Assembly: GCA_964367745.1 (NCBI GenBank)
Contig: CAYIYK010000003.1
Location: 10,248 to 74,247 of the forward strand
Reading direction: 5' to 3'
DNA from: an uncultured Candidatus Saccharibacteria bacterium
Lineage (GTDB): Bacteria > Patescibacteriota > Minisyncoccia > Phycocordibacterales > PALSA-1337
Length of the DNA: 64,000 bases
Part shown: in pieces, positions 20,056-41,817 of the stretch
How the letters are laid out: every line of letters starts with the position of its first letter
Numbering within the stretch: the stretch's first letter is position 1
Translations under genes and position numbers: made by a program
The notes under the pieces: generated by a model
What the model was told of the DNA's origin: nothing
Seen by the model: the letters and a program-made list of their open reading frames with translations, nothing else
Databases searched by the model: none

Positions 20056-20724
20056 ATGAAAATCCTGATTATTGAAGACGATGTAGATATTTCCAGTTTC
20101 ATAAAGGACAATCTTACAGAGAGTACATATTCAGTTGAAGTCGCAAAGGATGGACCTGATGGATCATTTCTGGCCAGAACAAATTATCACGATGTTATCA
20201 TAATGGATTATTCACTTCCTTCAAAAGACGGAGTTTTGGTTTGTGAAGAGATAAGATCATCAGGTGTTGAAACACCCATAATATTCCTAACCGTACATAC
20301 AGACGTCAAAAAGAAGGTTAAAGCATTAGAAAAAGGTGCGGATGACTATATGACTAAACCTTTCTCTATCGAAGAGTTAAAAGCGAGGATACAAGCTCTA
20401 GTGCGTAGACCTAGGAAAATCGAAAGTCCTGTACTGATAGTTGGAGACCTAGTTTTGGATACACACAAAAGAACAGTTAGAAGAGGTGAAACACCTATTT
20501 ATCTAACTAGAAAGACTTATGATCTATTGGAATATCTTATGAGGAATAAAGGTATAGTGCTTTCAAGGGGATCTATAATGGAATATGTATGGAACTCAGA
20601 TAGTGATCCATTCTCAAATACCATAGAAGCACATATCCTAAACCTCAGAAAGAAAATCAATGTTAGAGGTAAAAAGGATATACTAAAGAATATTCCAGGT
20701 AGAGGTTATATTATGGGGTCCTAA
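20056..20724 (+). CDS. OmpR-family two-component response regulator (REC + winged-helix); no adjacent histidine kinase
   Basis: 222 aa. The N-terminal receiver MKILIIEDDVDI has the acceptor Asp in VIIMDYSLP. The C-terminal trans_reg_C-like wHTH ends ...GRGYIMGS. Confidence 0.85.
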   Translation: MKILIIEDDVDISSFIKDNLTESTYSVEVAKDGPDGSFLARTNYHDVIIMDYSLPSKDGVLVCEEIRSSGVETPIIFLTVHTDVKKKVKALEKGADDYMTKPFSIEELKARIQALVRRPRKIESPVLIVGDLVLDTHKRTVRRGETPIYLTRKTYDLLEYLMRNKGIVLSRGSIMEYVWNSDSDPFSNTIEAHILNLRKKINVRGKKDILKNIPGRGYIMGS

Positions 20725-24431: not shown

Positions 24432-26312
24432 TTAAAATTTAAATCCTTTTTTCTTTAATTCTTTTAACATGTACTCTGTGATAATCCAATCAAGTGGATA
24501 GTCTATATCTATAGATCTCTCTTTTGGTACTATATACCCTGCAATCTTATCTCCATATAACCTCTCTTCTTTCATAATCAAATCTCTTCTCATACAATAT
24601 ATTGCTGCACTTCTCTTGTATGCTACAGGTAGATCTTGTCTTCTTGTACCTTCTACTTCAGGAACAGAATATGCACTGATGAAGTCACCTTCTAATTTTT
24701 TAATCTTAATTGGATTTACATTACTTGGTACTTCAACTATTGATACTGCACTATCTGCTTTTGTATCTATAAGTTTTTGAATTGTTCCATCGATATCGTC
24801 TATAGTTCTAAAAGGTGAAGTTGGCTGAAGAATAACTACATAGTCGATAGTGATATTATTTTTCTTTTCATAAAAATCTATTGCATGTTGCATTACAGGA
24901 AGATGTGGAGTTGAATCTAGAGCCAATTCTTTTGGTCTCATAAAAGGTACATCTGCACCATACTTCTTACACACATCGGCAATCTCTTTGTCATCTGTTG
25001 AAACGATAAGATGATTTATCAATTTACTTTTCTTTGCAGCATCGATTGTATATGCAATAAGAGGTTTATTGCCAAGTTTCTTTATATTCTTACCCGGAAT
25101 ACCTTTTGACCCTCCGCGAGCTGTAATAACGCCAAGGACGTTTGGAGTTCTGTATTCCCTATCTACATGTTCTTCTGTAAGCGGTTCAAATTTCTTTATA
25201 TCTTTTATTATTTTTTTATCCAAAATATCATGGAAAAGATTCGAGAAAATTCCATTTAGATGAAGTCTTGGTCTCATAGCGTAAACCATATCACTCGTGA
25301 TTATTGTTCCAGCTTTAATATCTCTTGAAGCAACGAGTGTTTTGTTGAAATAAGGTCTAAACTTATTTTGTGCACCTTCCAATTCTTTTTCCTTTTGACC
25401 GTAGAAAATATTTGTATCTATTTTCTTATATTCATTTTTCTTAATACCAGAGACCAATTGTTTCATTTCTTCTGGAGTTACTGAAGCTTTATGGTCTGAA
25501 CCCCAAAGGCCTCGGTCTAGAGAAAAGTGTTTCTCTATAACCTGCGCACCCATTTTTACTGCAGCTAAAGGAATAGTATTATCTCCAACTGAATGATCAG
25601 AAAAACCGATGATCGCTTGAGGGTATTTTTCTCTAAAATATTCTATAGTAGAAAGGTTAAAAGCTTCTGGAGGACATGGATATTCACTAACGCAATATAG
25701 AATAATAATTGGTGACCCACGCTTTGTTATATAGTCAACAACGTCATCCAACTCTTTGTGACTAACCATTCCTGTTGAAATGATTATTGGTTTTTGTGTC
25801 TTTGTAATAAAGTCCAAAAGAACATGATCCTGAACATCACCAGAACCTACTTTCCAGAAAGGTACATCTAGATTCTCAAGCTTAACCGCTGCCATTCTAG
25901 ACATCGGAGTTGAGAAGAATATAATTCCCTTTTTTTCTGAATATCTTTTTATCTCTTTGAAGAATTCTATAGGTGCTTCTTCAGTATTTCTTTTAACCCA
26001 AGAATATCTATCACTGCCTTTGAAGTGCGGAGAAACTACATTTATATTTGCTTGTTCATCTTCAACTTCATGAGTTTGAAATTTCACAGCATGTGCACCA
26101 GCTTTTACTGCTTCGTCGATAAGCTTTTTTGCATTTTTAATATAGACTTTTAGAGGTTGAGACTCTTGTGTTTGTATAAAATTCTTACCGATTTCAGCAA
26201 TAACAAAAACTTTATCTTTTGATATGATCTTAGAGATAGCGTGAGGTTTCACTATTTTTGAATTTTTGTTCTTACTGGCTTTAGAAGATTTAACAGACTT
26301 TTTTGTTTTCAT
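24432..26312 (-). CDS. neuBA: Bifunctional nonulosonic (sialic) acid synthase NeuB-like + SAF domain + CMP-nonulosonate cytidylyltransferase NeuA-like
   Basis: The N-terminal roughly 330 aa match NeuB/PseI/LegI: VIAEIGKNF, KFQTH, FFSTPMS, KVGSGD, IIGFSDH, EKHFS, and the SAF segment KTLVASRDIKAGTIITSDM. The C-terminal roughly 230 aa match CTP_transf_3/NeuA (LGVITARGGSKGIPGKNIKKLGNKPLIAYTIDAA). A Lys-rich N-terminal tail is present. Confidence 0.8.
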   Translation of the reverse strand: MKTKKSVKSSKASKNKNSKIVKPHAISKIISKDKVFVIAEIGKNFIQTQESQPLKVYIKNAKKLIDEAVKAGAHAVKFQTHEVEDEQANINVVSPHFKGSDRYSWVKRNTEEAPIEFFKEIKRYSEKKGIIFFSTPMSRMAAVKLENLDVPFWKVGSGDVQDHVLLDFITKTQKPIIISTGMVSHKELDDVVDYITKRGSPIIILYCVSEYPCPPEAFNLSTIEYFREKYPQAIIGFSDHSVGDNTIPLAAVKMGAQVIEKHFSLDRGLWGSDHKASVTPEEMKQLVSGIKKNEYKKIDTNIFYGQKEKELEGAQNKFRPYFNKTLVASRDIKAGTIITSDMVYAMRPRLHLNGIFSNLFHDILDKKIIKDIKKFEPLTEEHVDREYRTPNVLGVITARGGSKGIPGKNIKKLGNKPLIAYTIDAAKKSKLINHLIVSTDDKEIADVCKKYGADVPFMRPKELALDSTPHLPVMQHAIDFYEKKNNITIDYVVILQPTSPFRTIDDIDGTIQKLIDTKADSAVSIVEVPSNVNPIKIKKLEGDFISAYSVPEVEGTRRQDLPVAYKRSAAIYCMRRDLIMKEERLYGDKIAGYIVPKERSIDIDYPLDWIITEYMLKELKKKGFKF

Positions 26313-26348
26313 ATGTTATATCCTATGCTATTTAAAAATTTTTGCAAC

Positions 26349-26380
26349 AAAAAAAATCCACCCAGTAAAACCAGGTGGAA
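26349..26380 (-). terminator. Rho-independent terminator for the GC-rich methyltransferase gene (minus strand)
   Basis: On the minus strand the stem ttccacc...ggtggaa (26357-26380) is followed by T8 (26349-26356). It lies between the methyltransferase stop (26409) and the neuBA start (26312). Confidence 0.55.
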
Positions 26381-26408
26381 ATTGTGTTGAGTGTTCAGTA
26401 CTCGAAGA

Positions 26409-27347: not shown

Positions 27348-27523
27348 TTTTTTAAGAACTGCATCATGACTTTATTATCATGATTTTCGTTTAATCTATA
27401 ACATATTATTGTAAATTTAGCAATAGTACGATATTTAAATATTAAACTATAGAAAATAATTGACGTAATACTTTTTTAATGATATTGTATATTAAATTTA
27501 AACAAACAGTTCATTAAAAAAAT

Positions 27524-28507: not shown

Positions 28508-28540
28508 CCCTCACGTAAAAAGCGTGGGGGTCTTTTTATT
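28508..28540. terminator. Hairpin terminator (ccctcacg-taaaaag-cgtggggg + TCTTTTTATT) between convergent genes
   Basis: An 8 bp stem with one G-U pair is followed by a T-tract. It overlaps the stop of the minus-strand NeuC gene and lies 30 bp after the stop of the plus-strand membrane protein. Confidence 0.5.
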
Positions 28541-29693
28541 CAACAAAAGTCTTTTGAGTATAAAGAGGTACAGTAGCTATAACCTCTGCAATCTTTTTAC
28601 TTGTACCTTCTGCAAAATATAGACTTGATGATTCGTATCTGCCTTTTTTAACTTGTTTCTCTATTGCTTTCTTTATAGCTTTAATATCATGGTCTACAGT
28701 TACTACATTTTCTGCACTCAATCTTTTGAATTGTCTATTACCAATATTCACCACAGGCAAACCCATAAAAGAAGATTCCTTTATTCCAGCTGATGAATTC
28801 CCTATCAAACATAGACTGTTATTCAATAGCCAAATAAAATCCTTTGGACCCATATATCGCATGAAGCGTATTTTATGTCCTTTAACTTCATCTTTAAAAA
28901 TTCGAAGCTCATGTGATATATCTTCTGCACCGGCATCAGCATTTGGCCAAAACCAAAGTGTTGGAATCTTTAGACTATGTACAGCATCAAGGATTTTCTT
29001 TGTATTTTCATGTACATGCTTCACATCCATAATATCAGGATGATACATAACTATTAGATATCCTTTCTTTAGATCAAAAAGGGCCCCACTTCCTGTTTTC
29101 TTTATATCGAATTTATGTTTATTTTTTGCTAATTTTTGTACAACTTCTATTTCTGGACTACCAAAATTGAAAACGTGAGATTCTCTTTCTCCAAGTCTCA
29201 ATACTCTTTTTCTTGCTGGTTCATTTGTTGTAAAGTGAATATGAGAAAGTTTTGTGATAGCGTGTCTTACACTTTCATCTATTGATCCAGATACATCACC
29301 ACCTTCTATGTGTGCGATAGGTATAGATAAATATGCAGCTGCAATTGTAGCTGATAGAACTTCAAATCTATCACCTCTTACCACAACGACATCAGGTTTA
29401 ATCTGATTAAAAAGTGTAGTGAATTCTATTATTCCTAGTCCTGTTGTTTTTGCTTTTACGATTGTATCATTCCCTTCTAGATTGAAATGTAGTTCGTATA
29501 GCTTGTTATATCCGTCTTCCGTCAAAAGTTTTCTTATATCAGCAAGTTTTGAAGTATAACGAGACAATAAAGCTGTACCTCCAACTATTATATGTAGGTC
29601 AATATCCTTTCTTTTCTTTAGTTCTTCTAGAATAAGAAAGTTACGACTATAGTGTATGAAACTTGTAATAACAAAGCAGACTTTTCTCTTCAT
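28536..29693 (-). CDS. neuC: UDP-N-acetylglucosamine 2-epimerase (hydrolysing), NeuC-like
   Basis: 385 aa of the Epimerase_2 family. Motifs VVVRGDRFEVL and AHIEGGDVSGSIDESVRHAITKLSHIHF match. Confidence 0.8.
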   Translation of the reverse strand: MKRKVCFVITSFIHYSRNFLILEELKKRKDIDLHIIVGGTALLSRYTSKLADIRKLLTEDGYNKLYELHFNLEGNDTIVKAKTTGLGIIEFTTLFNQIKPDVVVVRGDRFEVLSATIAAAYLSIPIAHIEGGDVSGSIDESVRHAITKLSHIHFTTNEPARKRVLRLGERESHVFNFGSPEIEVVQKLAKNKHKFDIKKTGSGALFDLKKGYLIVMYHPDIMDVKHVHENTKKILDAVHSLKIPTLWFWPNADAGAEDISHELRIFKDEVKGHKIRFMRYMGPKDFIWLLNNSLCLIGNSSAGIKESSFMGLPVVNIGNRQFKRLSAENVVTVDHDIKAIKKAIEKQVKKGRYESSSLYFAEGTSKKIAEVIATVPLYTQKTFVE

Positions 29694-29696
29694 AGT

Positions 29697-30680
29697 CTAG
29701 CTAATATGCAGTATTTTTCGTAAAAATGCAAATCTATTTGAATACTTTATTATGTATATTATTTTAACCAAGATTGGTGATAGTGATACGCGCGCTTTAA
29801 GATAAATATTCTTCGGAATTTCTATATCTTTTGATAATGTATCCTTCCTTGCAACCAAACGTATATGGTGGGTATTCAATCCATCTTGTTTTTGCTTCTT
29901 TATTTGTTCTTGCTTTTTACCTTCATCAACATCCATATAGACGATTACGAAACCTGCTTTTTTACACATTAAAGAAAGTGTCTCTGGTGTAAACATATAG
30001 ACATGGTCAATCTGCACTCCAGACTGAAGCTTCCCCATTCTTCTAACTTGATGTCTCCAGTTTTTCACTGCAAGGAAAATATGACCACCTGGTTCCAGTG
30101 CTTCATGTGACCAATTTAGGAATTTCATTGGATCTAAAAGATGGTTCAAACTTTGAACACAAAGAATATTTTTTACTTTATTCTTAATATCCATATTCAC
30201 ATCTTCAAAAAGCCCGCGAATAGTCTTTACGCCTTTTGATTCTGCATAACCCGATTCTTCAAGCGAAGGTTCAATACCTAGCAGTTCTAGATTTTTCCTA
30301 GATTCCCTCATACCAAAAAGGATTCCACCAGTACTTGAACCAACGTCGATAGTAAGTCCGTCTTTTACATATTTACCCATATAACTGACTATAGCCTTAC
30401 CGAATCTTCTAGCATTCTCGAAGTTCTTCTCTAGATCAGAATTGTATTCACGATTCTTTATACTAGCTCTATCTTGTCTATAAAAAGACATATAGTATTC
30501 ATCATAATCTTTTGCAGTCATACGTGGGTTAATAAAGACTAGACTGCACTTCTTACACATTACTGTATTTGCTTTGAGATTGTTTACACTTCTTTTAACA
30601 ATTATTTTAAAATCATTTCCACCACAAAGATTACATGCGATGTATTCTAAATTCTTTTTATTATAATCAAATCCTTCCAT
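29697..30680 (-). CDS. SAM-dependent methyltransferase with N-terminal Cys4 zinc-ribbon (paralog 1 of 3)
   Basis: The Zn ribbon is C-NLC...CKKC, followed by SAM motif I IDVGSSTGG. The architecture resembles Methyltransf_13/14 sugar C/O-methyltransferases. Confidence 0.65.
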   Translation of the reverse strand: MEGFDYNKKNLEYIACNLCGGNDFKIIVKRSVNNLKANTVMCKKCSLVFINPRMTAKDYDEYYMSFYRQDRASIKNREYNSDLEKNFENARRFGKAIVSYMGKYVKDGLTIDVGSSTGGILFGMRESRKNLELLGIEPSLEESGYAESKGVKTIRGLFEDVNMDIKNKVKNILCVQSLNHLLDPMKFLNWSHEALEPGGHIFLAVKNWRHQVRRMGKLQSGVQIDHVYMFTPETLSLMCKKAGFVIVYMDVDEGKKQEQIKKQKQDGLNTHHIRLVARKDTLSKDIEIPKNIYLKARVSLSPILVKIIYIIKYSNRFAFLRKILHIS

Positions 30681-30681
30681 T

Positions 30682-32040
30682 TTATTTAATTAAATTAATT
30701 ATATAATCTGCAATTCTCTTTCCTGATAAACCGTCTGTATAACTTGTCTGTTCTTTTACCAAGATCTCTCTTTCTTTACTCTTTACTGATGGATCATCAA
30801 GATATTTATTTATTGAATCCAATAACTCTTGTTTGCTATTAACTAGATCGATAGCACCGGTCTTTAATGCATTCTTATAATGCCAAGTTCTATAGTATTG
30901 TACAGGAGATTTCAATAATTTTGGAATTATATTTATTTCAAAATTTATATTTATTACAGGTTTATTAAAAATACTTGCATCGATACTAATACTTGAAGCA
31001 TAGCAAACCAAAACAGACATATGATAAAGAGTATCCTGCAAATGTTCTAGATCTGCTTTATTCATATCCCAATCTACACCTCTTTTTGTACCAAAACGTA
31101 TACCAGGCTTATCATATTTTAGATCTGGTCTCTTTGATATTTCTTCTTCATCAACAAAGTCATTTGGTTGGAATCGGACCAATAATTCACATTCGTATTT
31201 CAATTCATTTGAGTGAATAGTTTTTTGCAAAAGGTCGATTATATCCCAATCTGCAGAACTGAACGCTCTCCCCATTGGAGCGTATACTATCAATTTCTTA
31301 TCACTTGATATTTTTATTTTATTAAAAAATTCTTCTCTTAAAATAGGTTTCCTTGTGTAGAAGAAATCGTATTGTGGCAGACCGCTGATAAAAATATCTT
31401 CCGATTTCATTTCATTCAAATCAATCATCTCCTTTTTTACGATATCGTTAAAAACTATAGCTTTATCAGGTAATAATCTTAAAATGCATCTTGATGTAAC
31501 TTTGTCCCAAGAGTTTATATAGCCTATCGTTTTTATTTTTCTTTTTTTTGCTTCTCTTAAAAGATTGATTTCTATTTCTTCAAATAGATGTGCGGTGAAA
31601 ACAAGATCTGGTGAATATTTATCAAAATATTCACTATATGTATTGTCTTTTATTAAAATAAAATCCAAATATCGTACGATTCTTCTTATCACAGGCCAAG
31701 CCAAAATATAGTTCGATACTTTACCAAAATAGTATCCGAAAAATCTTCCTTCATATTCACTTACCATTTTCCTTTTTAAATCTGTTGTTTCAGTTCTAAG
31801 TAAAGTGAATTTCATCTTTGAGAAAAACCCATCAAACATTGGTACAGATTTTTGCTCGACAAATTCAAATACTATTCTTGGATCATTGAATTCATTTTTA
31901 TAATAATCAACTTTTTGTTGTGATTTTGTAAATAGAACAATTTTAATATCTTTATTTAAAAGAAGATTTTCCAAAATCGGTGTTCGTAGAATATTTTTTA
32001 CTTCTACACCCTCAAAGATTGTTACAAATATTGTCTTCAT
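30682..32040 (-). CDS. Surface-carbohydrate biosynthesis transferase-like protein (paralog 1 of 3; TagB/TagF-like or capsule-synthesis-like GT-B fold, speculative)
   Basis: 452 aa. It shares conserved blocks with ORFs 32037..33365 and 36479..37873, including the N-terminal MKTIF, the GYINSWDKVTS(R/K)(C/G)I block and V/IYAPMGR (reminiscent of the YAPT(W/F)R block of CDP-glycerol glycerophosphotransferases). The function is not established. Confidence 0.45.
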   Translation of the reverse strand: MKTIFVTIFEGVEVKNILRTPILENLLLNKDIKIVLFTKSQQKVDYYKNEFNDPRIVFEFVEQKSVPMFDGFFSKMKFTLLRTETTDLKRKMVSEYEGRFFGYYFGKVSNYILAWPVIRRIVRYLDFILIKDNTYSEYFDKYSPDLVFTAHLFEEIEINLLREAKKRKIKTIGYINSWDKVTSRCILRLLPDKAIVFNDIVKKEMIDLNEMKSEDIFISGLPQYDFFYTRKPILREEFFNKIKISSDKKLIVYAPMGRAFSSADWDIIDLLQKTIHSNELKYECELLVRFQPNDFVDEEEISKRPDLKYDKPGIRFGTKRGVDWDMNKADLEHLQDTLYHMSVLVCYASSISIDASIFNKPVININFEINIIPKLLKSPVQYYRTWHYKNALKTGAIDLVNSKQELLDSINKYLDDPSVKSKEREILVKEQTSYTDGLSGKRIADYIINLIK

Positions 32041-33365
32041 TTATTTATTGATTCTAGTATTGCATTAAAAAGTCTTTCAGTATTTTTGCCATCCAAAAAT
32101 CCAGTTTCCATCTCTGCTAGTTTCTTTCTTTTATCTTTATCCAGACTAGGATTTTTAACGTATTCTTCTACATAGTCTTTAAATTGACGCATAGATTCAG
32201 CCAGCTTCACACCTCCACTCTCTATTACTGGAATAAAATTGTTATAATCATAATATCTTCTTATACTATCAAAATATTCCCTTTTTTCATGTCCGTCAAA
32301 ACCAAAAAGGATTATTGGTTTATCCATATATGCAGAATCCAAAACTAAAGTTGATGGTGAGCTGATAACCAATTCTGACCAGAACAATGTATGAGCAAGA
32401 TGTATATCATCATCTTTATCGATCTCTGTAATTTTTATATTATCAAATTTAGGTTTTGCTCTGTCATACATAACCTTAATATTTGGAAACTTCGGACTAT
32501 TCTCCAATTCTCTAACATAATCTCCAGGTGGAAGTCTGACTAGAAGTTGATAATCATTTGGTAAAGTCTTATCCAAAATATCTACAATATCTCTGTCTAC
32601 AGTATTTTTTCTCAAATATCGATCACCTAGAGGTATAAATAAAGCCAGCTTTTTATTCTGATCACCACCTATTTTTTCTATAAATTCTTTTCTATTTGTA
32701 AATACATTCTTTTTATAATCATCATAGTGTGGAATTCCGACAATAGATATTATTGATTCATTTATTCCTTGAAGATCTTTTGCTTCATCTTTAATGATAT
32801 TGTTCCAAACAAAAAGTCTATTCGGAATCGTTCGAATGATACCTTTTGAAGTAAGATTGTCCCAAGAACGAACCATACCGATAGTCTTTATACCTGAGGA
32901 ATTACCTTCATTTAAAATCGCTATATCGATTTCGCTTTGAATATCGGTAGCGAATACGCAATCAGGTTTATACTGCTCAAATAATTTATCAAATTTTTTA
33001 TTTTTATAACTTACTCTTTCCAAGAATCTTACGAATTTATGCCCGATTTTATTTGATAATAAATAAGTTAAATACATTCCACTCCCTTTCATCTCTGTCT
33101 TCCTTTTTATATAAAGAGTTTTTGTATTTAATGCTGTTAGCGAAAGATACTTTAATAAATTTTCTCTTTTAGCATTTTTAAATTCTATTCCTTCAACAAC
33201 TACCCCATCTCTTTCAAAACTTTCTTTAAAAAAACTCTCTTTATTTTTTGGAGCAATTATTACAACTTTTATTTCATTCTTAACAAAGAGATCCAAAATT
33301 CCAGATGAAAGAATATTTCTTGATATTAGAGGATGGCAACTAGTTATAAAAATTGTCTTTTTCAT
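32037..33365 (-). CDS. Surface-carbohydrate biosynthesis transferase-like protein (paralog 2 of 3)
   Basis: 442 aa and a paralog of 30682..32040. It has the same MKKTIFIT start and the same RSWDNLTSKGI block. The two genes are adjacent and overlap by 4 bp. Confidence 0.45.
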   Translation of the reverse strand: MKKTIFITSCHPLISRNILSSGILDLFVKNEIKVVIIAPKNKESFFKESFERDGVVVEGIEFKNAKRENLLKYLSLTALNTKTLYIKRKTEMKGSGMYLTYLLSNKIGHKFVRFLERVSYKNKKFDKLFEQYKPDCVFATDIQSEIDIAILNEGNSSGIKTIGMVRSWDNLTSKGIIRTIPNRLFVWNNIIKDEAKDLQGINESIISIVGIPHYDDYKKNVFTNRKEFIEKIGGDQNKKLALFIPLGDRYLRKNTVDRDIVDILDKTLPNDYQLLVRLPPGDYVRELENSPKFPNIKVMYDRAKPKFDNIKITEIDKDDDIHLAHTLFWSELVISSPSTLVLDSAYMDKPIILFGFDGHEKREYFDSIRRYYDYNNFIPVIESGGVKLAESMRQFKDYVEEYVKNPSLDKDKRKKLAEMETGFLDGKNTERLFNAILESINK

Positions 33366-34312
33366 TATCTTTTAAGGAATTGCTGTAGACGTACTGTAAG
33401 TAAATATCTTAAATAAATATAATATTTGTTTATTGATAATAAAGTAAAAATATAATTACCCTTACCTATTGTTAAATCCTTGAAGGGGGTTTTATTCAAT
33501 CTTTTAGCCACAATGCGAATATGTACTTTTGGAATTCCCTGCATGACCTTCTTTTTTGTATATTCATTAGCTTCAAAGAAAAGGATTTCGAATCCAGCTG
33601 ATACAATGAAATCTCTCAAAACCTCAGGTGTATACATATAGACATGGTCGATCTTTACACTATTTTCATACTTTCCTGCTTTTTGTAATTGCTGTCGAAA
33701 ATTCATAACTTCAACTACAAGAAGTCCATTATCAAAAAGAGACTCGTGAGCCCATTTGAAAAAATATCTAGGATCCAAATAGTGATTTAAAGCTTGAGTA
33801 CTGACTATAACTGCGAATTTTTCTTTTTTATTATGATCTTCGATTAGAGCATGATAAGTCTTTATTCCTTGAGAATTCGCATAATCTGATTCAATCTTTG
33901 ATGGCTCAAGACCAATTACTTCTCTATTCAAAAATCTTTTCATTCCTTCCAAAACTCCTCCGACACCAGAACCGACTTCCATTATTGAGCCTTTTACTTT
34001 TAGATATGGTGATATAAGCTCACCCAAGAATTTGCCGTGTCCGATGGTTGATTCGAACAATTTCTTACAATCAAAATCTGAACCTGCTTCGCCATTGTTT
34101 ATAGTTTTTTGTCTGTATTCTTCTTCATAATAGAATTTGTAACCAGACTTTGTCATTCTAGGATTTATATAAATAAGCCCGCATTTTTTACAAATAACAG
34201 AATTCAAAGCAAGACCATCAGTGCCTTTTTTTGACAGGATTTTATAATTGTTACTTAAACAGAAACTGCAAGCAATATTCTCCTTTTCAATTGTATTGTA
34301 TGGGAAAGACAT
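33365..34312 (-). CDS. Zn-ribbon SAM-dependent methyltransferase (paralog 2 of 3); ORF extends to 34432 but the homology-supported start is Met at 34312
   Basis: From MSFPYNTIEKENIACSFCLSNNYKIL...CKKCGLIYINPRMT it aligns colinearly with the N-terminus of paralog 1 (MEGFDYNKKNLEYIACNLCGGNDFKII...CKKCSLVFINPRMT). SAM motif I is MEVGSGVGG. Confidence 0.65.
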   Translation of the reverse strand: MSFPYNTIEKENIACSFCLSNNYKILSKKGTDGLALNSVICKKCGLIYINPRMTKSGYKFYYEEEYRQKTINNGEAGSDFDCKKLFESTIGHGKFLGELISPYLKVKGSIMEVGSGVGGVLEGMKRFLNREVIGLEPSKIESDYANSQGIKTYHALIEDHNKKEKFAVIVSTQALNHYLDPRYFFKWAHESLFDNGLLVVEVMNFRQQLQKAGKYENSVKIDHVYMYTPEVLRDFIVSAGFEILFFEANEYTKKKVMQGIPKVHIRIVAKRLNKTPFKDLTIGKGNYIFTLLSINKYYIYLRYLLTVRLQQFLKR

Positions 34313-34383
34313 TTTATGATAAACAAGTATATCACAACAAAATATTGCTTCAATTAAGATTAAATTCTGATATACTGTCTCAA

Positions 34384-35520
34384 ATGGAAATAAAAATCGA
34401 TAAGGTCGCAAATCTAAGTGGCTGGAAATCATATACAGTAGACAATACTAATGATTTTATAACTATAAATGATTGCTTGTGTTGCAAAGGAAAACTAAAA
34501 GTTACAATTCGAAATAAAAATCAAACAGACGATACAAAGATTGATATTGGAACTTGTGTAAATTGTGGTTTTACAACCTATATTAATAAACCAAGTCACA
34601 AATGGATTATCGATTTCTACAATTCAACTTGGAATAAAGAAGAGGGTGAAGAGAATAATTTTGTAAATAAAGATCTACAATCTAGCAAACTAACAATAGC
34701 CCTAGAAAAAATAAATTTCCCAAAGAATGGTTCAATATGTGAAATCGGCACAGGAAGAGGCGGTAACTTTGCTGCGCTTATAAATAATGGTTATAACAAT
34801 CTTATTGGTGTAGAGAATTCAATACACAGAGCTGATACAGTGAGTAAAGCTCTAAATGATGTTCCTATATACACAGGAGGTTTTGAAGAAGAAAAAGTAC
34901 AAAATGCTCTAGCGAAACATGGAAGTTTCGATTTGATATACACTGCTCATGTAATGGAACATATTTATAATCCTGAAGAGACTATTGAACTATGTTCAAA
35001 ACTTCAGAATGAAAATGGTCATTTGATAGTCGCTGTGCCGAACTTCGTAGGTGAACCTAGTATAGGTATTTCTTCTTTCCTTCCCCATTTACATTCTTTT
35101 ACAAAAGAATCGATGATAAGACTTTTGAATAATAAAGGGTATCAAGTTATAGATGATAGTTACACTACAGAGTTTGAATTGTTTCTTATTGCTCAAAAGA
35201 AAAGTAATATTAATAAAAAACTAGATAATAAGACTGATTATATAAAACCTGCTCAAGACAAATTTATTAAAGAATTAAAATTGAATGAAATTCCCCTAAA
35301 TCAGTCTGTATTCTATTTTTTCTCTAAGAAAAATTATTCAGTATCTGGATATAAAATACTAAATAAAATATCAATAATAAAAACAATTCAAGCTATGTTT
35401 TTCAAATTCATTCAAAGAAAAAAAGGTTATAGATCTTTCGTATTTACTTTGATGAATAAAGATAAAAATCAACCAATTGTATTGAATTGGAAGAAATCTA
35501 TTATTCTTTTCTATAAATAA
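34384..35520 (+). CDS. Zn-ribbon SAM-dependent methyltransferase (paralog 3 of 3, divergent orientation, longer C-terminus); six-frame ORF begins at 34231 but likely start is 34384
   Basis: The Cys4 ribbon is CLCC...CVNCGFTTYINKPS and SAM motif I is CEIGTGRGG. The 34231 start would overlap the neighbouring divergent methyltransferase by about 200 bp. Confidence 0.6.
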   Translation: MEIKIDKVANLSGWKSYTVDNTNDFITINDCLCCKGKLKVTIRNKNQTDDTKIDIGTCVNCGFTTYINKPSHKWIIDFYNSTWNKEEGEENNFVNKDLQSSKLTIALEKINFPKNGSICEIGTGRGGNFAALINNGYNNLIGVENSIHRADTVSKALNDVPIYTGGFEEEKVQNALAKHGSFDLIYTAHVMEHIYNPEETIELCSKLQNENGHLIVAVPNFVGEPSIGISSFLPHLHSFTKESMIRLLNNKGYQVIDDSYTTEFELFLIAQKKSNINKKLDNKTDYIKPAQDKFIKELKLNEIPLNQSVFYFFSKKNYSVSGYKILNKISIIKTIQAMFFKFIQRKKGYRSFVFTLMNKDKNQPIVLNWKKSIILFYK

Positions 35521-36471
35521 TTAGAAATTATAGAATTTCGGCTCCTTCTTTATCTTATTTGAAACTGCGATTTTAGCTTCATTAGATAGTCCATTTGTAT
35601 CTAGTGATTTCGGATATTTATATAGTATAGGCCAAACAGATGCTGGAGAAGTGTATACACTTGTATACATGAATCTATTACTTGTCTTTGCATGACCGCC
35701 TCTATGCAAACCGCTTGTATCGCAGAATATTATTGTTCCAGCTTTACCTGTACACACAATTTTGTCTTCATTAGGAATTAAGGAATCCTGGCTTGCACTA
35801 CCTCGTGGTGGCTGTTGTGGTGATATATGTCTCCATTTACCGAAGATATGAGACTTTTTAACATAAATAAAAGGGCCAGCATTGTCATCAACATCATTTA
35901 GATAAAGGAACACTTTTACAAGTTGTTGATCTTCAGGATCTCTGTGCCACTCTTGTGATGCGTAACTTCTCATTCCTTCAGGCATAGGTACGGTCACTTG
36001 GAATCTCCAATCAAAAAACTTCATATACATTTTCATATATGCATTCACTGTTCCGAGAATTTGATTACTCAGACTCATTTTGGTGAGAGGATGTTTTAGA
36101 TCCAATATTCTCTCTCCATTCCAAAGATCGATCAAAAAGAAATTCTTACTTTTCAACTTGTCACCATCCAATAGATTACCTCTAGAGTCGTATCTTTCTT
36201 TAACGTCTTTATCATTCCATCGATTCTGTGCAATCTTCTCCAATTCAGCATATACGTGCTTTGGAAAAAGTTTATCGATATGACTTATTGCAATACCGTC
36301 TCTATTTAGATCTTCGACGATTTTCTTCTGTTCATCTGACAATTTATTTTCACTCTTTTTATAAAGTCTAATACTTGAGATATTTAGTAGAGTCCAGACA
36401 AATCGACTTGCTCTGATGCGATGATAAAAACGTGCGATTATACCTATAACACTTTTTATTATTTTCTTCAT
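35521..36471 (-). CDS. Phytanoyl-CoA dioxygenase (PhyH)-family Fe(II)/2-oxoglutarate-dependent oxygenase
   Basis: 316 aa. The HxD...H facial triad context fits: WHRD and GLHRGGHA. The protein size matches PhyH-like hydroxylases. Confidence 0.6.
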   Translation of the reverse strand: MKKIIKSVIGIIARFYHRIRASRFVWTLLNISSIRLYKKSENKLSDEQKKIVEDLNRDGIAISHIDKLFPKHVYAELEKIAQNRWNDKDVKERYDSRGNLLDGDKLKSKNFFLIDLWNGERILDLKHPLTKMSLSNQILGTVNAYMKMYMKFFDWRFQVTVPMPEGMRSYASQEWHRDPEDQQLVKVFLYLNDVDDNAGPFIYVKKSHIFGKWRHISPQQPPRGSASQDSLIPNEDKIVCTGKAGTIIFCDTSGLHRGGHAKTSNRFMYTSVYTSPASVWPILYKYPKSLDTNGLSNEAKIAVSNKIKKEPKFYNF

Positions 36472-36478
36472 AAATAAA

Positions 36479-37828
36479 TTAAATAATTTTTCCTAAAAAA
36501 TCGACATTTCTCTTATAAGACAAACCGTCTCTAAAGAAAATAAAATCATTGAATACTTTCTCTTGTTGCTTCTTTTTTACATCGTGATTTTTCAAACAAA
36601 TATTAACATGTTCAACGATATTATCGAAACTCTTTGAGAGAAAAACTGCATCAGCATCTACTATAGGTTTATAGTGACGGAAATTGTATGCTCTATGATA
36701 CTTTTCTGGATAATCTATATTTACAACTGGTTTTCCGAAGATAAAAGATTCAAGGGTCATTGTTGAAACGTAGTTTATAACTACATCAGAATATTTTAGA
36801 GTTAATTTTAGATTCAAAATATCATCTTCATGTATTTCAATTCTTGTACCCATTTCTTGTGAAAGTAACTTGCCTGGATATTCAACATGGAGATTTGGAA
36901 TTTTACTATCAATATATACTTTGAACTTATCAAACTCTTCTTTTGGATGCATTCGCACTAGAATATTGGGTTTACCATCGAATTTGCCTTGATCACGAGC
37001 TTTCAATAGTTCACCAAGAAGAATATCTTCATCAGGGTAATTCCCCTTTGTAACTGTAGTTATAAGTATTGTTTTTTCTTTTGGATTCAATCCTTTACTC
37101 AAAAGGAACGCTTCTCTAGACTGTTCACTTGGATTGTTTACAGAATAAGAGTCGAAACGCATTGTACCTGAGACAAATACATTATCTTCTGAATATCCAT
37201 ATTCTTTAACTGCGGTATTTTTTATTATTTTATTCCAAACGATTAGATAATCTGGTCTTCTAAAATGCATTCCTCCATTGTGAAGATTGTCCCAACTGAA
37301 GTTTACTGCAGCAGTCTTTATACCAAACTTCTTAGCATATATTATTGCTTCAGCATCAGGATGACTGAAGCCAGGAGTTGCTGTTAGAAACATAACTGGG
37401 TTGTATTCTTTAATCTTTTCTTCAAGAGCCTTTGATCTTGGTATAAAAATTTTCTCAAGTTTAGTAAATAAATCATTTGTCCAAAAAGATGCAGGGGCAA
37501 TGTAAGAAAAATACTTCAAAAATCTTCTTCTCCAATCCTTCATCCCCTTTTCTTTATTTCTTACAACCACTGGTTCAAAATCGTATTTACGGATTATTGA
37601 ATATCTAAAATATTTACCAAATAGATTCCAAAATCCTGGATTTTGTAATTTCCAAGGAACATAAGTCACATTTTCTGATTTAAAATATGGTTTATTATCT
37701 TCACAAAAAGCTTGTGGGGACATAAATACGACTACTTTGTATTTTGTTGATAAATACTTTATATAATCTGTACGCAAAAAATCTGATGAGTAAACAAAGT
37801 TCGAAATAAAAAGAAATATTGTTTTCAT
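36479..37828 (-). CDS. Surface-carbohydrate biosynthesis transferase-like protein (paralog 3 of 3); ORF extends to 37873, paralog-supported start MKTIF at 37828
   Basis: It shares the MKTIFLFIS start, the NFSWDNLHNGG block and the (I/V)W/FN motif with the other two paralogs. Confidence 0.45.
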   Translation of the reverse strand: MKTIFLFISNFVYSSDFLRTDYIKYLSTKYKVVVFMSPQAFCEDNKPYFKSENVTYVPWKLQNPGFWNLFGKYFRYSIIRKYDFEPVVVRNKEKGMKDWRRRFLKYFSYIAPASFWTNDLFTKLEKIFIPRSKALEEKIKEYNPVMFLTATPGFSHPDAEAIIYAKKFGIKTAAVNFSWDNLHNGGMHFRRPDYLIVWNKIIKNTAVKEYGYSEDNVFVSGTMRFDSYSVNNPSEQSREAFLLSKGLNPKEKTILITTVTKGNYPDEDILLGELLKARDQGKFDGKPNILVRMHPKEEFDKFKVYIDSKIPNLHVEYPGKLLSQEMGTRIEIHEDDILNLKLTLKYSDVVINYVSTMTLESFIFGKPVVNIDYPEKYHRAYNFRHYKPIVDADAVFLSKSFDNIVEHVNICLKNHDVKKKQQEKVFNDFIFFRDGLSYKRNVDFLGKII

Positions 37829-37873
37829 AGAAAGGTATTGTAGCATATATGTTATAATCCTTATTATTACCAC

Positions 37874-38992
37874 ATGAAAAAGCCTATTCTGCTACTCTGG
37901 ATAATTTCATCATGGATTCTCTATCCTTTTTTTAGTCTATCTTCAAAAATTAAGAGTAAGAAACTAGGTAAAAAGAAAAGGATACTTGTATTACCTCAGC
38001 TTTCTAGAATTGGGGACATCGTCTGTTCTACAGGCGTATTTTATAACATAAAAAAATCATATCCTGATAGTTATGTATCTGTACTAGTATCAAAGAGAGC
38101 ATTTGGAATTATAAAAAACAATAAAAGAATCGATAATTTTATTATTTATGAAGACTATTCTTTTTTTGGTTTAATAAATAAAATTAAATCAGAGAATTTT
38201 AACTATTCAATAAACCTCACAGCAACATCAATAAATACATGTTTAACACTTTGGAGTTGTATAGATCACAGAATAAAGACTGTGGTAGAAAATCCCCCGA
38301 TTACTGAGAGACTAACTGATTGTATGTCTAATCATCGATTGTTATACAAGAATCATACGTATTTACCGCTTCATCATATAAAGTTGTTGAATTTTATTGG
38401 AATAAATAATCCTGAAGATAAAAAAGAAATCTGGCTAAGTGATACAGCAGAAATAAAAGCGAATGATTTTGTTAAAAATCTTGGAGAAAATAAGAAAATA
38501 ATTGGAATAAGTATAACCGCAGGAAATAAAATAAAAGAACTCGGTGATGAGAGATTTGAAAAATTAATAAATAAACTATTAGAAAATAAAGAAAATATTG
38601 TTTGTTGTATAGGATCAAAAAACGATTCAGAAAGAATAGATAAAATAATATCAAGCGTAAATAATCCTCGTTTCATTAAAGCAACAGATTTTAACTTGGA
38701 AGAGTTACCATCTCTTATGAAAAGATTCTCACTTTATATAGCAGTTGATACAGGCCCTATTTATATCGCACATGCTCTGGGAGTACCTCTAATAGACATA
38801 ATAGGTCCAGTAGATCCGGATGAACAACCACCAAAAGACAGTAAGAGTATACGAATTCTTCCTAGAGGAGATATTAAGCCTAGTTCATTTGTATTTAAGA
38901 GACGTGGAACTCAAGATGAAATCATCTCAGCAATACAAAATACTGATATAAACGATATCTATAAAGCAGCAAGTATACTATTGAGTAAGTAG
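37874..38992 (+). CDS. Glycosyltransferase family 9 (heptosyltransferase-like)
   Basis: 372 aa. The N-terminal ILVLPQLSRIGDIVCSTGVFYNIKKSYPDSYVSVL and the C-terminal VDTGPIYIAHALGVPLIDIIGP match GT9 signature regions. Confidence 0.6.
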   Translation: MKKPILLLWIISSWILYPFFSLSSKIKSKKLGKKKRILVLPQLSRIGDIVCSTGVFYNIKKSYPDSYVSVLVSKRAFGIIKNNKRIDNFIIYEDYSFFGLINKIKSENFNYSINLTATSINTCLTLWSCIDHRIKTVVENPPITERLTDCMSNHRLLYKNHTYLPLHHIKLLNFIGINNPEDKKEIWLSDTAEIKANDFVKNLGENKKIIGISITAGNKIKELGDERFEKLINKLLENKENIVCCIGSKNDSERIDKIISSVNNPRFIKATDFNLEELPSLMKRFSLYIAVDTGPIYIAHALGVPLIDIIGPVDPDEQPPKDSKSIRILPRGDIKPSSFVFKRRGTQDEIISAIQNTDINDIYKAASILLSK

Positions 38993-40366
38993 ACCGTATC
39001 TAACAAACCATCCTCGAACTATTGATATTCCCTTTCGAAGGATTATTTTATCTTCTTCTTTGAAACCAAAGATAATTTTAAAATCAAAATGGAATCCTTT
39101 ATCCTGATTTTTTGTGTATATATAGTTTGCAATAACCATAATTAAAGGTACGAGTACAAATTCAAGAGACAATCCCCAAAGACCGATAATTGGTAGGGTA
39201 GAAACGATGAGACCAAGAGTCAAACTATTTCTTAATAGATGTAGAAAGAAAAGGTATTTTTGTTTTCGTAGTGCTATGAGATAGTTGCCGATTATGATTC
39301 CACTTGCAAATATTGGTAAATTCAAGAGCATAAAGTAGAACAATGGTATTGATTGTGCGTATTTTGAGAAGAAAGTATAGACGACTGGTGGCACGACAAC
39401 AATCGCTGATATAACCACCAATATACTTCCAAGTACAAAATATTTTATTCCATAAGAAAACATTTTTACCGATAGATGTTTGTCTTTTATCCAAAGTGGT
39501 ACGAGAGATTGCATTGTATTACTTGGAATTAGATCTTGAATAGTTGTAACAATAGTCTCTGCGATAGAATATATAGCCACTGCTTCTGTGCCAATGAAAA
39601 GTTTAACCAGCCAAGGTTTAACCCTGAAAGTTATTTTATTTATAAATTGTCGAAGCACATCCCAAGTACCATAGGTGGTGAAAATATTCCACAACAATAC
39701 ATTTGGAGTAGCTACAATATGACTCCATTTGAAATATACCTTGAAGAATTGATATGAAACTGCCAAAACACTGAGTGATGAAGCGATGATTATAGATAGT
39801 ATCAATTGTTTCAAACCAAGATTGCCTTGCAGGAAATAATAAATAAGTACAATAGATTGAATAGCTTTATTTATAGTATATCTCTGAGCAACTACTGAGA
39901 ACTTCAATCTGACTAGACATAGTAATCGTATAAGAACGAACAATCCTTCACTCAAAATCACAAAAGAAATCATTCTCATATCTTTTACGAAATCGATATC
40001 GTAAGATTTAAAGAAGTAAACTGAACCGAAGAATATTATTGCCCAAGCAATGAAAGTTATAACTATTCTAACCAAAGAATATTCTAAGAAAATTCTCTTT
40101 GCATCACTAAGTCTATTGTCAGCAATTGCTCGAGACATTTCATTTGAGATAATAGCTGAACCAAGATTCAAAACATCAGACGGTACACCTGAAAAAGAAA
40201 GTAGGAGTTGGAATACACCGTACTGATACAGGGTAAGAGATGTAATGGTTAAGAATGTATTCAATAGACCTATTGCCTTTGTCACAAGATTCCAAAAGGT
40301 TGAAATAGCTTCCCCTTTTAAGAAAATAGCCATAAATGACGGCTTTTTTTGAGTATTTGTATCCAT
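38978..40366 (-). CDS. Polysaccharide biosynthesis protein / Wzx-like flippase (MOP superfamily)
   Basis: 462 aa with about 12-14 TM helices. The size and topology are typical of Wzx/RfbX-type oligosaccharide flippases. Confidence 0.6.
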   Translation of the reverse strand: MDTNTQKKPSFMAIFLKGEAISTFWNLVTKAIGLLNTFLTITSLTLYQYGVFQLLLSFSGVPSDVLNLGSAIISNEMSRAIADNRLSDAKRIFLEYSLVRIVITFIAWAIIFFGSVYFFKSYDIDFVKDMRMISFVILSEGLFVLIRLLCLVRLKFSVVAQRYTINKAIQSIVLIYYFLQGNLGLKQLILSIIIASSLSVLAVSYQFFKVYFKWSHIVATPNVLLWNIFTTYGTWDVLRQFINKITFRVKPWLVKLFIGTEAVAIYSIAETIVTTIQDLIPSNTMQSLVPLWIKDKHLSVKMFSYGIKYFVLGSILVVISAIVVVPPVVYTFFSKYAQSIPLFYFMLLNLPIFASGIIIGNYLIALRKQKYLFFLHLLRNSLTLGLIVSTLPIIGLWGLSLEFVLVPLIMVIANYIYTKNQDKGFHFDFKIIFGFKEEDKIILRKGISIVRGWFVRYGLLTQ

Positions 40367-41814: not shown

Positions 41815-41817
41815 TTT

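Follow-up and report, generated by a model that had tools for sequence, protein, structure and literature searches.

TagF, TarL and TagB (PF04464; PDB 3l7i, 8va1) are GT-B-fold transferases with CMP as leaving group, and their genes can adjoin those that make the cytidine-activated donor; in the true tarL locus, the CDP-ribitol genes lie directly upstream of tarL. TagB-domain proteins also occur in nonulosonic acid (NulO, sialic-acid-like) loci. In Tannerella forsythia, deletion of the TagB-domain proteins BFO_1060, Tanf_01245 and TFUB4_00887 removed the terminal Pse/Leg derivative from the O-glycan (PMC5420450). In Bacillus subtilis, the TagB-domain protein SpsB (TagB/SpsB family, COG1887) is encoded beside the CMP-legionaminic acid pathway, and spsB deletion left legionaminic acid on the spores (PMC7439481). 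The nucleotide-sugar C-3'-methyltransferase TcaB9 (PDB 3ndi) joins an N-terminal Cys4 zinc domain to a Rossmann domain.

The DNA analyzed here (the window, 64,000 nucleotides) originated from a metagenome-assembled genome of the Patescibacteria (CPR). The odds lean slightly toward the region being the glycan-decorating core of a NulO surface-glycan locus, operating through the pathway proposed below as a whole. Three transferase-like proteins (TF1 to TF3) and three Zn-ribbon methyltransferases (MT1 to MT3) most likely attach and methylate sialic-acid-type sugars on a strain-variable surface glycan; the TF set widens a poorly characterized enzyme class within a system that is itself of a known kind. 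These six genes and a PhyH gene, which a sequence-only reading of the same DNA had listed, were all found at the expected positions, and MT2, TF2, TF1, MT1 and neuC formed, in that order, a packed run on one strand with neuC as the last gene.

TF1 (30682..32040, minus strand, 452 aa), TF2 (32037..33365, minus strand, 442 aa), whose genes overlapped by 4 nt, and TF3 (36479..37828, minus strand, 449 aa) were full-length paralogues, as had been proposed. In blastp with composition-based statistics, TF1 and TF2 were 30% identical over 456 aa (E 2e-61), TF1 and TF3 25% over 470 aa (E 6e-29), and TF2 and TF3 26% over 324 aa (E 2e-20). No further TF paralogue was found in the window. The M-K-T-I-F N-terminus, S-W-D and V-(F/W)-N-x-I-(V/I)-K showed little or no variation when the three TFs were aligned; the shared blocks of the sequence-only reading were thus real, although its patterns were approximate (TF1 ends the S-W-D block in TSRC rather than in G, and F precedes SWD in TF3). 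That reading had also begun TF3 at GTG 37873, which is the limit of the maximal ORF only; the gene most likely starts at ATG 37828, because homologues begin there with MKT(V/I)F. The R-x-H-P motif was kept in TF3, and the histidine of VRxHP was present in all 27 TF3-clade members examined. It was retained in that clade only, being replaced by Gln in TF1, by Pro in TF2 and by one or the other throughout their clades, whereas TarL has H433 at this position.

The TFs had a GT-B fold, and the weak resemblance to TagB/TagF that the sequence-only reading had seen in the YAPMGR block was borne out. TF1 and TF2 matched PF04464 above its gathering score of 22.1 (TF2, E 1.7e-8, 34.2 bits), while TF3 fell below it (E 0.0016). 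TF2 matched the TarL profile at E 5e-5, and a profile built from the three TF clades matched TarL at E 4.5e-5. In hhalign, TF and TarL aligned with 97-98% probability over the C-terminal, nucleotide-binding half, in which YAPMGR, VRFQP, YASSxxxD and DGxSxxR of the TFs were paired with FAPTFRG, FKMHP, DYSSxxxE and DGRSSER of TarL, giving common motifs of the form (Y/F)AP..R, xxxxP, (Y)SS...(D/E) and DG.S..R. By these alignments, the C-terminal Rossmann domain of the TFs and the CDP-alditol-binding domain of TarL/TagF are homologues. The N-terminal (acceptor) domain, however, gave no confident hhalign alignment to TarL, and neither a W-H catalytic motif nor any invariant histidine was seen in its alignments. 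Among the classical bacterial GT-B sialyltransferases and Kdo transferases, GT38 SiaD, GT52, GT80, WaaA and KpsC/KpsS gave no family match to the TFs at E 0.1 or better, and their structural scores were lower than those of TarL and TagF.

All three TFs also matched NF046086, the BFO_1060 family, at E values from 1e-12 (TF2) to 3e-23 (TF3); the scores of 48-83 bits, over about half of the model, were far below the curated cut-off of 200. TF3 further matched TIGR04396 at E 1e-11, far below the curated cut-off. Like the T. forsythia Pse/Leg transferases, whose NulO-adding role is genetically supported, the TFs are TagB-domain GT-B proteins within a NulO locus, and TF3 shares the HP motif. The T. 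forsythia proteins, however, belong to another phylum, and the TFs are known from sequence, as three paralogues per locus of which two have lost the HP histidine.

The genes that would supply a NulO donor were next to the TFs. A NeuC/NnaA-type hydrolyzing UDP-GlcNAc 2-epimerase was encoded at 28536..29693 (minus strand; TIGR03568 E 2e-102, 342.7 bits against a cut-off of 235.9; Epimerase_2 domain), and a fusion of NulO synthase and CMP-NulO synthetase, NeuB-NeuA, at 24432..26312 (minus strand; NeuB E 4e-66, CTP_transf_3 E 1e-27). The nearest profiles to the fusion were NeuB_NnaB, PseI and PseF, none of which it matched above the equivalog cut-off. These adjacent genes, the main functional clue to the region, were absent from the sequence-only reading. 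In the proposed pathway, NeuC and NeuB-NeuA would make a CMP-activated nine-carbon sugar.

Pfam scans of the window found no cytidylyltransferase domain other than NeuA. Because a TF1-derived pattern was used to collect the related loci, TF1 is ubiquitous among them by ascertainment. Of the 44 loci that were 20 kb or longer, 37 had NeuB/NeuA-like genes no more than 10 kb from the TF1 orthologue, as did 56 of 80 related loci overall. TF3-clade genes were directly upstream of NeuA in three loci (L055, L065, L068), and on a single metagenomic contig a TF3-like domain was fused to CTP_transf_3 (NeuA) in one protein (P0231). From this proximity, the fusion and the sole cytidylyltransferase, we infer that the TFs are most likely CMP-NulO transferases, distantly related to the T. 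forsythia Pse/Leg transferases. TF1, TF2 and TF3 would bind the cytidine nucleotide of CMP-NulO, transfer the NulO and release CMP, probably with D179, which lies in the invariant S-W-D motif, acting as the catalytic base; they may serve three different acceptors or positions on a membrane-bound glycan, possibly including NulO-to-NulO linkages. The dispensability of SpsB for legionaminic acid at the spore surface counts against this assignment; the JGI name of TF1 homologues, 'TagB/SpsB family', likens them to that protein.

It is improbable, though worth weighing, that the TFs are instead genuine TagB/TagF-type phosphotransferases, which would take an alditol-phosphate (that of glycerol, ribitol or another alditol) from a CDP donor and add it to a wall glycopolymer or polymerize it there, with the NulO genes serving another step of that polymer. 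The PF04464 matches of TF1 and TF2 and the TarL alignment speak for this, as does the label 'CDP-glycerol glycerophosphotransferase family protein' that source databases give to homologues. The CPR envelope is also generally regarded as Gram-positive-type, where teichoic-acid-like polymers are plausible. However, real tarL is preceded by its own CDP-ribitol genes, whereas the donor gene beside the TFs is NeuA, not TagD or TarI. A TagD query, run over the window and the related loci, found no glycerol-3-phosphate or ribitol-5-phosphate cytidylyltransferase in the window and matched in only 1 of 88 loci, although the genome may encode CDP-alditol synthesis outside the window. The tight synteny with NeuA/NeuB, the NeuA fusion, the loss of the HP histidine in the TF1 and TF2 clades and the lack of a W-H motif and of any invariant histidine in the N-terminal domain likewise argue against alditol-phosphate transfer.

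Similarly doubtful is a role of the TFs as glycosyltransferases that use UDP-, GDP- or dTDP-linked donors on NulO-containing acceptors, so that the NulO linkage would reflect the acceptor. In its favor, the window holds three TFs to a single NulO pathway, and in some relatives a GDP-mannose-dehydratase-like gene lies between TF1 and MT1. Against it, the only half that aligned confidently was the nucleotide-binding domain of the TarL family, which uses cytidine nucleotides; the TFs match the BFO_1060 family and a fusion to a CMP-NulO synthetase exists; and ordinary sugars are already provided for by the GT2, GT4 and GT9 enzymes of the locus (Pfam scans). Very unlikely, finally, is a non-transferase role, in which the TFs would help to make NulO precursors as epimerases or hydrolases of nucleotide sugars, with a GT-B fold like that of NeuC. 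One homologue (P0157) had a sub-threshold Epimerase_2 match and TF1 a weak NeuC_NnaA match (E 0.016), but sequence profiles favored Glyphos_transf by many orders of magnitude, the TFs were 17% identical to TarL and TagF and 12-14% to epimerases, and a bona fide NeuC is encoded next door.

Besides the CMP-NulO transferases so proposed, the locus encodes MT1 (29697..30680, minus strand, 327 aa), MT2 (33365..34312, minus strand, 315 aa; Methyltransf_23 E 1.7e-14) and MT3 (34384..35520, plus strand, 378 aa; Methyltransf_23 E 3.5e-14), all class I SAM methyltransferases with a Zn ribbon. MT2 was also called as 315 aa in relatives, and its stop overlapped the TF2 start by 1 nt. The claim of three paralogous methyltransferases held in full for MT1 and MT2, which were 40% identical across 313 aa (E 4e-70); MT3 was a distant third member only, matching the other two at 19-23% identity (E 8e-6 and 1e-7) along 233-254 aa that took in the ribbon. 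The window's other three methyltransferases gave only short matches to MT1-3 (at most 70 aa, best E 0.003). The ribbon cysteines (C16, C19, C42 and C45 in MT1) were invariant across 36 homologues and, as modeled by AF2, fold into a zinc ribbon of three strands.

TcaB9 was the best structural match of the MTs across ribbon and Rossmann domain, and it is possible, if less probable than not, that MT1-3 act before transfer on soluble nucleotide-linked sugars and not on membrane-bound glycan, C- or O-methylating CMP-NulO or one of its precursors in the manner of TcaB9. The MTs were, however, only 17% identical to TcaB9, did not match PF08421 or PF08484 in the Pfam scan, and lacked its C-terminal nucleotide-sugar-binding domain (327 aa against 405 aa). 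In its place MT1 and MT2 carry basic amphipathic C-terminal helices, which in the models suggest membrane association. MT1 and MT2, whose genes directly adjoin those of TF1 and TF2, would most likely methylate the residues that those TFs handle.

The sequence-only reading had explained the gene set by a unit of methyltransferase plus transferase that was duplicated locally and whose copies then diverged. The two paralogous families stood; the local duplication was not supported in that form. The one-strand run MT2-TF2-TF1-MT1 does not repeat such a unit, either in tandem or inverted. MT1 and MT2 were on the minus strand as described, but MT3 was on the plus strand, tail to tail with PhyH and head to head with MT2, and it travels with PhyH rather than with a transferase. 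In 45 of 80 related loci, TF genes occurred without any Zn-ribbon methyltransferase. Each protein formed its own clade spread over many Patescibacteria lineages (orthologues in 76 loci for TF1, 39 for TF2, 26 for TF3, 22 for MT1, 14 for MT2 and 12 for MT3), indicating that the duplications are ancient and did not arise in this genome. TF1 followed by MT1, and TF2 beside MT2, recurred in close and distant loci, which fits functional pairing and is compatible with an ancient unit duplication.

PhyH, a Fe(II)/2-oxoglutarate dioxygenase family member (35521..36471, minus strand, 316 aa; PF05721, 23.2 bits against a cut-off of 22), forms a two-gene cassette with MT3, which neighbors PhyH in relatives too. 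The cassette was missing from the three distinct, more than 90% identical relative contigs that span the junction (L002, L003, L005), was present in L001 and L015, and lay upstream of TF3 in L011 and L012. Relatives carried other inserted genes at the locus. This variation supports the earlier idea of a diversifying surface-glycan toolkit; PhyH and MT3 would be an optional hydroxylase-plus-methyltransferase cassette for further strain-specific decoration. The divergent MT2 and MT3 starts are separated by 71 bp (34313..34383), of which the MT2-proximal part was kept in cassette-less relatives (alignment with L003). A promoter-like site there, 34353 to 34326 on the minus strand (TTGAAG-16-TATACT with TG), is a weak indication only, because such sites were not enriched over shuffles in the region (43 observed, 60.6 in shuffles).

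Divergent from TF3 lay a GT9 (heptosyltransferase-family) glycosyltransferase gene (37874..38992, plus strand; PF01075 E 1e-17), which adjoined TF genes in near and distant related loci. It was followed by a gene for a Wzx-like flippase (Polysacc_synt; 38978..40366, minus strand; PF01943 E 2.5e-7) whose position was kept in relatives and whose product would flip the finished glycan. A Wzy_C membrane protein of the O-antigen ligase/O-oligosaccharyltransferase family with C-terminal TPR repeats (20711..22957, minus strand; Wzy_C E 1.5e-16) probably acts last on the glycan, as its ligase or polymerase, and would attach the product; its gene was syntenic with NulO genes in many loci.

The seven open reading frames that a sequence-only reading had described in this region were all found where it placed them. 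The three proteins of about 450 aa, encoded on the minus strand at 30682-32040 (TF1), 32037-33365 (TF2) and 36479-37828 (TF3), were full-length paralogues in pairwise blastp comparison, as that reading had held: TF1 and TF2 shared 30% identity over 456 aa (E 2e-61), TF1 and TF3 25% over 470 aa (E 6e-29), and TF2 and TF3 26% over 324 aa (E 2e-20). MKTIF, S-W-D and V-(F/W)-N-x-I-(V/I)-K were invariant or nearly so across the three-protein alignment; the shared blocks first noticed by eye are real, although the motif expressions written for them were approximate. Because homologues begin with MKT(V/I)F, the start of TF3 is most likely the ATG at 37828. No further TF paralogue was found within the window. 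The nearest relatives of TF1 were 92% identical and came from metagenomic contigs and MAG GCA_964629235.1, and an exact look-up found no identical protein on record. Among the Zn-ribbon methyltransferases, MT1 (29697-30680, minus strand) and MT2 (33365-34312, minus strand) shared 40% identity (E 4e-70). MT3 (34384-35520) aligned with both of these, ribbon included, over 233-254 aa at 19-23% identity (E 8e-6 and 1e-7), and the other three methyltransferases of the window gave only short matches to MT1-3 of at most 70 aa (best E 0.003). By these comparisons, MT3 is a distant member, clearly nearer to MT1 and MT2 than the other three are. MT3 had been read as a minus-strand gene; it is on the plus strand, convergent with PhyH (35521-36471, minus strand) and divergent from MT2.

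Related loci were taken at species level from a genome collection (n = 80), every one from MAGs. About 70 were labeled as Patescibacteria (CPR) lineages (Parcubacteria, Paceibacterota, Sungbacteria, Giovannonibacteria and others) or with the blanket name 'Saccharibacteria', and about 10 as 'bacterium' only. These relatives place the window in a CPR bacterium. In neighbour-joining trees TF1, TF2 and TF3 formed three separate clades drawn from 76, 39 and 26 loci, and MT1, MT2 and MT3 formed clades drawn from 22, 14 and 12. The TF and MT duplications are thus older than much of the Parcubacteria-type radiation, or have spread through it. A recent in-situ duplication was ruled out, since each paralogue falls in its own old clade. 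The local modular duplication proposed from the sequence was unsupported on the same ground and also on gene order, as the run MT2-TF2-TF1-MT1, all on one strand, does not repeat a unit. MT3 was likewise rejected as a same-strand partner of TF3, being on the plus strand and traveling with PhyH. The number of TF copies per locus ranged from 1 to 4, and TFs were present with the Zn-ribbon methyltransferase absent in 45 of the 80 loci. MT1 followed TF1 in near and distant loci, with one or two extra genes intervening in some relatives, and MT2 adjoined TF2 on either side. This recurrent TF1-MT1 and TF2-MT2 neighbourhood would fit functional pairs as well as an ancient duplication of the pair.

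TF1 (41.9 bits) and TF2 (34.2 bits) exceeded the gathering score of 22.1 bits for PF04464 (CDP-glycerol glycerophosphotransferase), whereas TF3 (17.9 bits) fell just under it. All three matched NF046086 (BFO_1060 family glycosyltransferase; E 1e-12 to 3e-23); their scores of 52.7, 47.8 and 82.5 bits were far under the curated 200-bit cut-off, and the best stretch spanned only about model positions 30-192 of 365. Judged by these profiles, the TFs are relatives of the BFO_1060 family, not members. TIGR04396 ('surface carbohydrate biosynthesis protein') was matched by TF3 at 44.5 bits against a curated cut-off of 125 and had no match in TF1 or TF2. A profile built from all three TF clades matched TarL among PDB sequences (E 4.5e-5) and aligned with it in hhalign at 97-98% probability; the TF1-clade or TF3-clade profile alone recovered neither TagF nor TarL from the PDB sequences, and only the mixed profile did. 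The confident hhalign block joined TF1 205-447 to TarL 343-559, pairing GLPQYD with GVPRTD, VYAPMGR with LFAPTFRG, LLVRFQP with VLFKMHP, YASSISID with DYSSLIYE and YTDGLSGKR with YQDGRSSER. With PF04464, the TarL match and hhalign in agreement, the faint TagB/TagF resemblance noted in the sequence-only reading proved correct for the nucleotide-binding half of the TFs. The AF2 model of TF1 (pLDDT 92) had a GT-B fold, and the polysialyltransferase SiaD and the Kdo transferase WaaA scored about 17 against it. Membership of a KpsC/KpsS-like or classical sialyltransferase family was rejected, as no profile matched. Epimerase-like activity of these GT-B proteins is highly improbable.

The HP-motif histidine of TagB, TagF and TarL was kept only by TF3. 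In the confident hhalign block, TF1 Q291 aligned with TarL H433, the HP-motif His, which we take to correspond to TagF H584. At this position the TF1 clade had Gln or Pro (55 and 14 of 79 members), the TF2 clade had Pro (44 of 49), and all 27 members of the TF3 clade had His. For mapping of the catalytic His, the sequence of a plasmid tarL was used, and the catalytic W299-H300 of TarL was located from the 8va1 alignment (an H300N structure, with H300 after an N-domain strand). The TF N-domain aligned to that of TarL with near-zero confidence in both global and local hhalign modes, so no confident counterpart of W299-H300 was obtained. No His was invariant in the N-domain of the TF family, and its sole invariant polar residue was D179 of S-W-D; R289, D436 and R442 were conserved in addition to S-W-D. 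We infer that D179 may stand in place of the TarL catalytic His, the W-H of TarL perhaps having become W-D in the TFs.

Gene content and homology indicate that the TF donor is probably a CMP-nonulosonic acid (CMP-NulO, a sialic-acid-like donor). TagF-type genes normally adjoin the gene for the enzyme that makes their cytidine-activated donor, and in the plasmid tarL locus the genes for ribitol-5-P cytidylyltransferase and a dehydrogenase directly precede tarL. NeuA was the only cytidylyltransferase domain that Pfam scans found in the window. No domain for CDP-glycerol or CDP-ribitol supply (TagD, TarI/TarJ) appeared in those scans, and tblastn with a TagD query sequence returned nothing in the window and a match in 1 of 88 loci. 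Unlike TagB, TagF and TarL, the TFs therefore have no locally encoded CDP-alditol supply in the window, with such genes possible elsewhere in the genome. That the TFs are true alditol-phosphate transferases, as the PF04464 scores of TF1 and TF2 might suggest, is unlikely. The CMP-NulO donor is favoured by synteny: NeuB/NeuA-like genes lay within 10 kb of the TF1 orthologue in 56 of the 80 loci and in 37 of the 44 loci of at least 20 kb, all loci having been retrieved with TF1-derived patterns, an ascertainment bias for TF1. Such synteny would also suit glycosyltransferases that use other donors and act on NulO acceptors, a role we think improbable for the TFs. A gene fusion also points to CMP-NulO: in the protein P0231 (3478-5556 of contig L087), a TF3-like domain (about residues 1-445) is fused to a CTP_transf_3/NeuA-like cytidylyltransferase (452-637). 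This fusion was seen on one 7.7-kb metagenomic contig only, where its neighbours were a methyltransferase, a TF1-like gene, NeuC, a 2-hydroxyacid dehydrogenase and EamA. TF3-clade genes also stood directly upstream of NeuA in three related loci (L055, L065 and L068). In T. forsythia, deletion of the TagB-domain gene Tanf_01245 or TFUB4_00887 (BFO_1060 family) removes the terminal Pse/Leg derivative of the O-glycan (PMC5420450). By contrast, B. subtilis does not need SpsB, a TagB-domain protein from a Leg locus, to have Leg on its spores (PMC7439481). NeuA/NeuB synteny, the NeuA fusion and a nucleotide domain homologous to a cytidine-nucleotide-binding family together give indirect support to CMP-NulO-dependent transfer. 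Because both reactions expel CMP, re-use of the TagF nucleotide domain would be plausible.

A NeuC/NnaA-type hydrolysing 2-epimerase (28536-29693, minus strand) lies directly downstream of MT1 and, at 342.7 bits, exceeded the TIGR03568 cut-off of 235.9. A fusion protein of 626 aa (24432-26312, minus strand) joins NeuB to NeuA, and both halves missed every NCBIfam equivalog cut-off (NeuB 252 of 400, PseI 214 of 340 and PseF 172 of 206 bits). The equivalogs gave no assignment of these domains to Neu5Ac, Pse or Leg. Pfam scans of the window showed neither a DegT-type aminotransferase nor a Pse/Leg-pathway 4,6-dehydratase. A D-2-hydroxyacid (phosphoglycerate-type) dehydrogenase and a small cupin are encoded at 22993-24422; the dehydrogenase was syntenic with NeuA in 35 of 80 related loci, and the cupin weakly resembles the N-acetylneuraminate anomerase NanQ/YhcH. 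A GT9 glycosyltransferase and a Wzx-like flippase are located near the TFs, and GT2 and GT4 enzymes around the TF/MT cluster. The 748-aa protein at 20711-22957 combines Wzy_C (O-antigen ligase/O-oligosaccharyltransferase family) with C-terminal TPR, is conserved beside the NulO genes in many loci, and might act either in protein O-glycosylation or as a ligase of wall polymers.

MT1-3 are class I methyltransferases (Methyltransf_23) with an N-terminal CxxC...CxxC, the four Cys of which were invariant in 36 homologues. In the AF2 model of MT1 (pLDDT 92.9), a three-stranded zinc ribbon was followed by a Rossmann domain and three C-terminal helices. Like TcaB9-type sugar C-methyltransferases, MT1-3 have a Cys4 zinc domain at the N-terminus and a class I domain after it. 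However, the C-terminal nucleotide-sugar domain of TcaB9 is missing from the MTs, which are about 80 residues shorter and end in helices, and no Methyltransf_13 (PF08421) or Methyltransf_14 (PF08484) match was obtained for MT1-3 in Pfam at E <=0.1. The shared domain order would suit action on soluble nucleotide sugars, which we consider possible for the MTs but, with that domain missing, doubtful. The C-terminal helices are basic and hydrophobic, and may mediate membrane association. PhyH matched PF05721 marginally, at 23.2 bits against a gathering score of 22, and no PDB relative was found for it by sequence search.

Closely related loci differed in small cassettes. L001 had the same seven genes as the window, whereas exactly PhyH and MT3 were missing from L002, L003/L007 and L005 (all >90% identical), in which MT2 began about 60 bp after the TF3 stop. 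Junction alignment placed the cassette at about 34352-36475 in the window; a search for flanking repeats around it gave nothing convincing. PhyH and MT3 were found upstream of TF3 in L011 and L012 and in a window-like placement in L015. Between TF1 and MT1, a gene for a 265-aa formyltransferase-like protein and one for a 382-aa protein were present in L008 (11367-13296), L009, L040, L013 and L036, and a GDP-mannose-4,6-dehydratase-like SDR was present in L016 (4424-5440) and L018; this junction is a hot spot of gene insertion. The NeuC to NeuB-NeuA stretch also varied among the closest relatives. In the window it contains a GC-rich island (26266-27400; 0.40 versus 0.30-0.34 in the flanks) with a 312-aa class I methyltransferase (26409-27347, minus strand) and several spurious overlapping ORFs. 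That methyltransferase was missing from the >90%-identical L001-L007, had a 56%-identical copy in L008, and appears to have been acquired recently within the NulO locus. Compared with the closest relatives (L001 and L003), TF2 (89% identity) and TF1 (92%) were the most diverged of the cluster, with TF3, MT1, MT2, NeuBA, Wzx, GT9 and NeuC at 93-98%. The TF1 and TF2 differences from L001 and L003 were spread along the proteins and not confined to a single domain. With cassette presence and inserted genes differing among relatives, the idea of a diversifying toolkit, put forward in the sequence-only reading, gained support. A promoter/terminator scan gave fewer promoter-like sites than in shuffles.

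In the model that we propose, NeuC, NeuB and NeuA would convert UDP-GlcNAc to CMP-NulO, as their annotation predicts. The GT2, GT4 and GT9 enzymes would assemble a lipid-linked glycan, and TF1-3 would attach NulO to it at different positions or on different acceptors. From their adjacency, MT1 and MT2 may methylate those residues on which TF1 and TF2 act, and from their pairing and enzyme classes PhyH and MT3 might perform an optional hydroxylation followed by methylation. The product would be flipped by Wzx and ligated or polymerised by the Wzy_C/TPR protein. A bolder version, to which we give only a slim chance, holds that TF1-3 form a new CPR-wide family evolved from TagF-like phosphotransferases. 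The Asp of S-W-D would serve as catalytic base, the HP His would have been lost in two lineages, and serial action with CMP-NulO donors would yield an oligo- or poly-NulO, teichulosonic-acid-like wall polymer, modified by partner methyltransferases, with decoration switched by small cassettes such as PhyH and MT3.

Bacterial nonulosonic acid transferases are poorly known. TagB-domain candidates for this role have been described already, on the evidence of knock-outs in one species (PMC5420450). CPR sialic acid genes are mentioned only in passing (PMC4736985), and a full-text literature search found no paper with both 'Patescibacteria' and 'nonulosonic acid'. New here is a CPR-wide subfamily that stays under the curated thresholds of the named families, occurs as two or three ancient paralogues per locus, of which two lack the HP His, and is systematically coupled with Zn-ribbon methyltransferases and with small cassettes for modification. 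The present locus and its 80 relatives show a consistent link between a TagF-like subfamily and NeuABC across Parcubacteria-type CPR. The subfamily often occurs there as two or three anciently diverged copies, accompanied by partner methyltransferases and swappable cassettes. If the donor is right, methylated sialic-acid-like sugars would coat many uncultured ultra-small bacteria, and near-identical strains would differ in their surface, which would be relevant to host and phage recognition in episymbionts. The family would then also be a tractable set, with HP present or lost, for studying conversion of a phosphotransferase scaffold to a CMP-sugar glycosyltransferase.

Further genes of the window may bear on glycosylation. 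The stretch 40390-44240 encodes a 474-aa membrane protein without a family, a 552-aa PMT_2-like protein and a GT2 that resembles polyprenyl-phosphate sugar synthases (PpgS, E 3e-20), which suggests an extra extracytoplasmic glycosylation step with a lipid-phosphate sugar donor. Downstream of the glycan locus, a TraG/VirD4-like coupling ATPase is encoded at 53949-55823, and the region 53949-64000 holds a type IV pilus set with a pilin bearing the N-methylation motif, PilC/T2SSF, two T2SSE ATPases and PilO. The pilins would be candidate targets of glycosylation.
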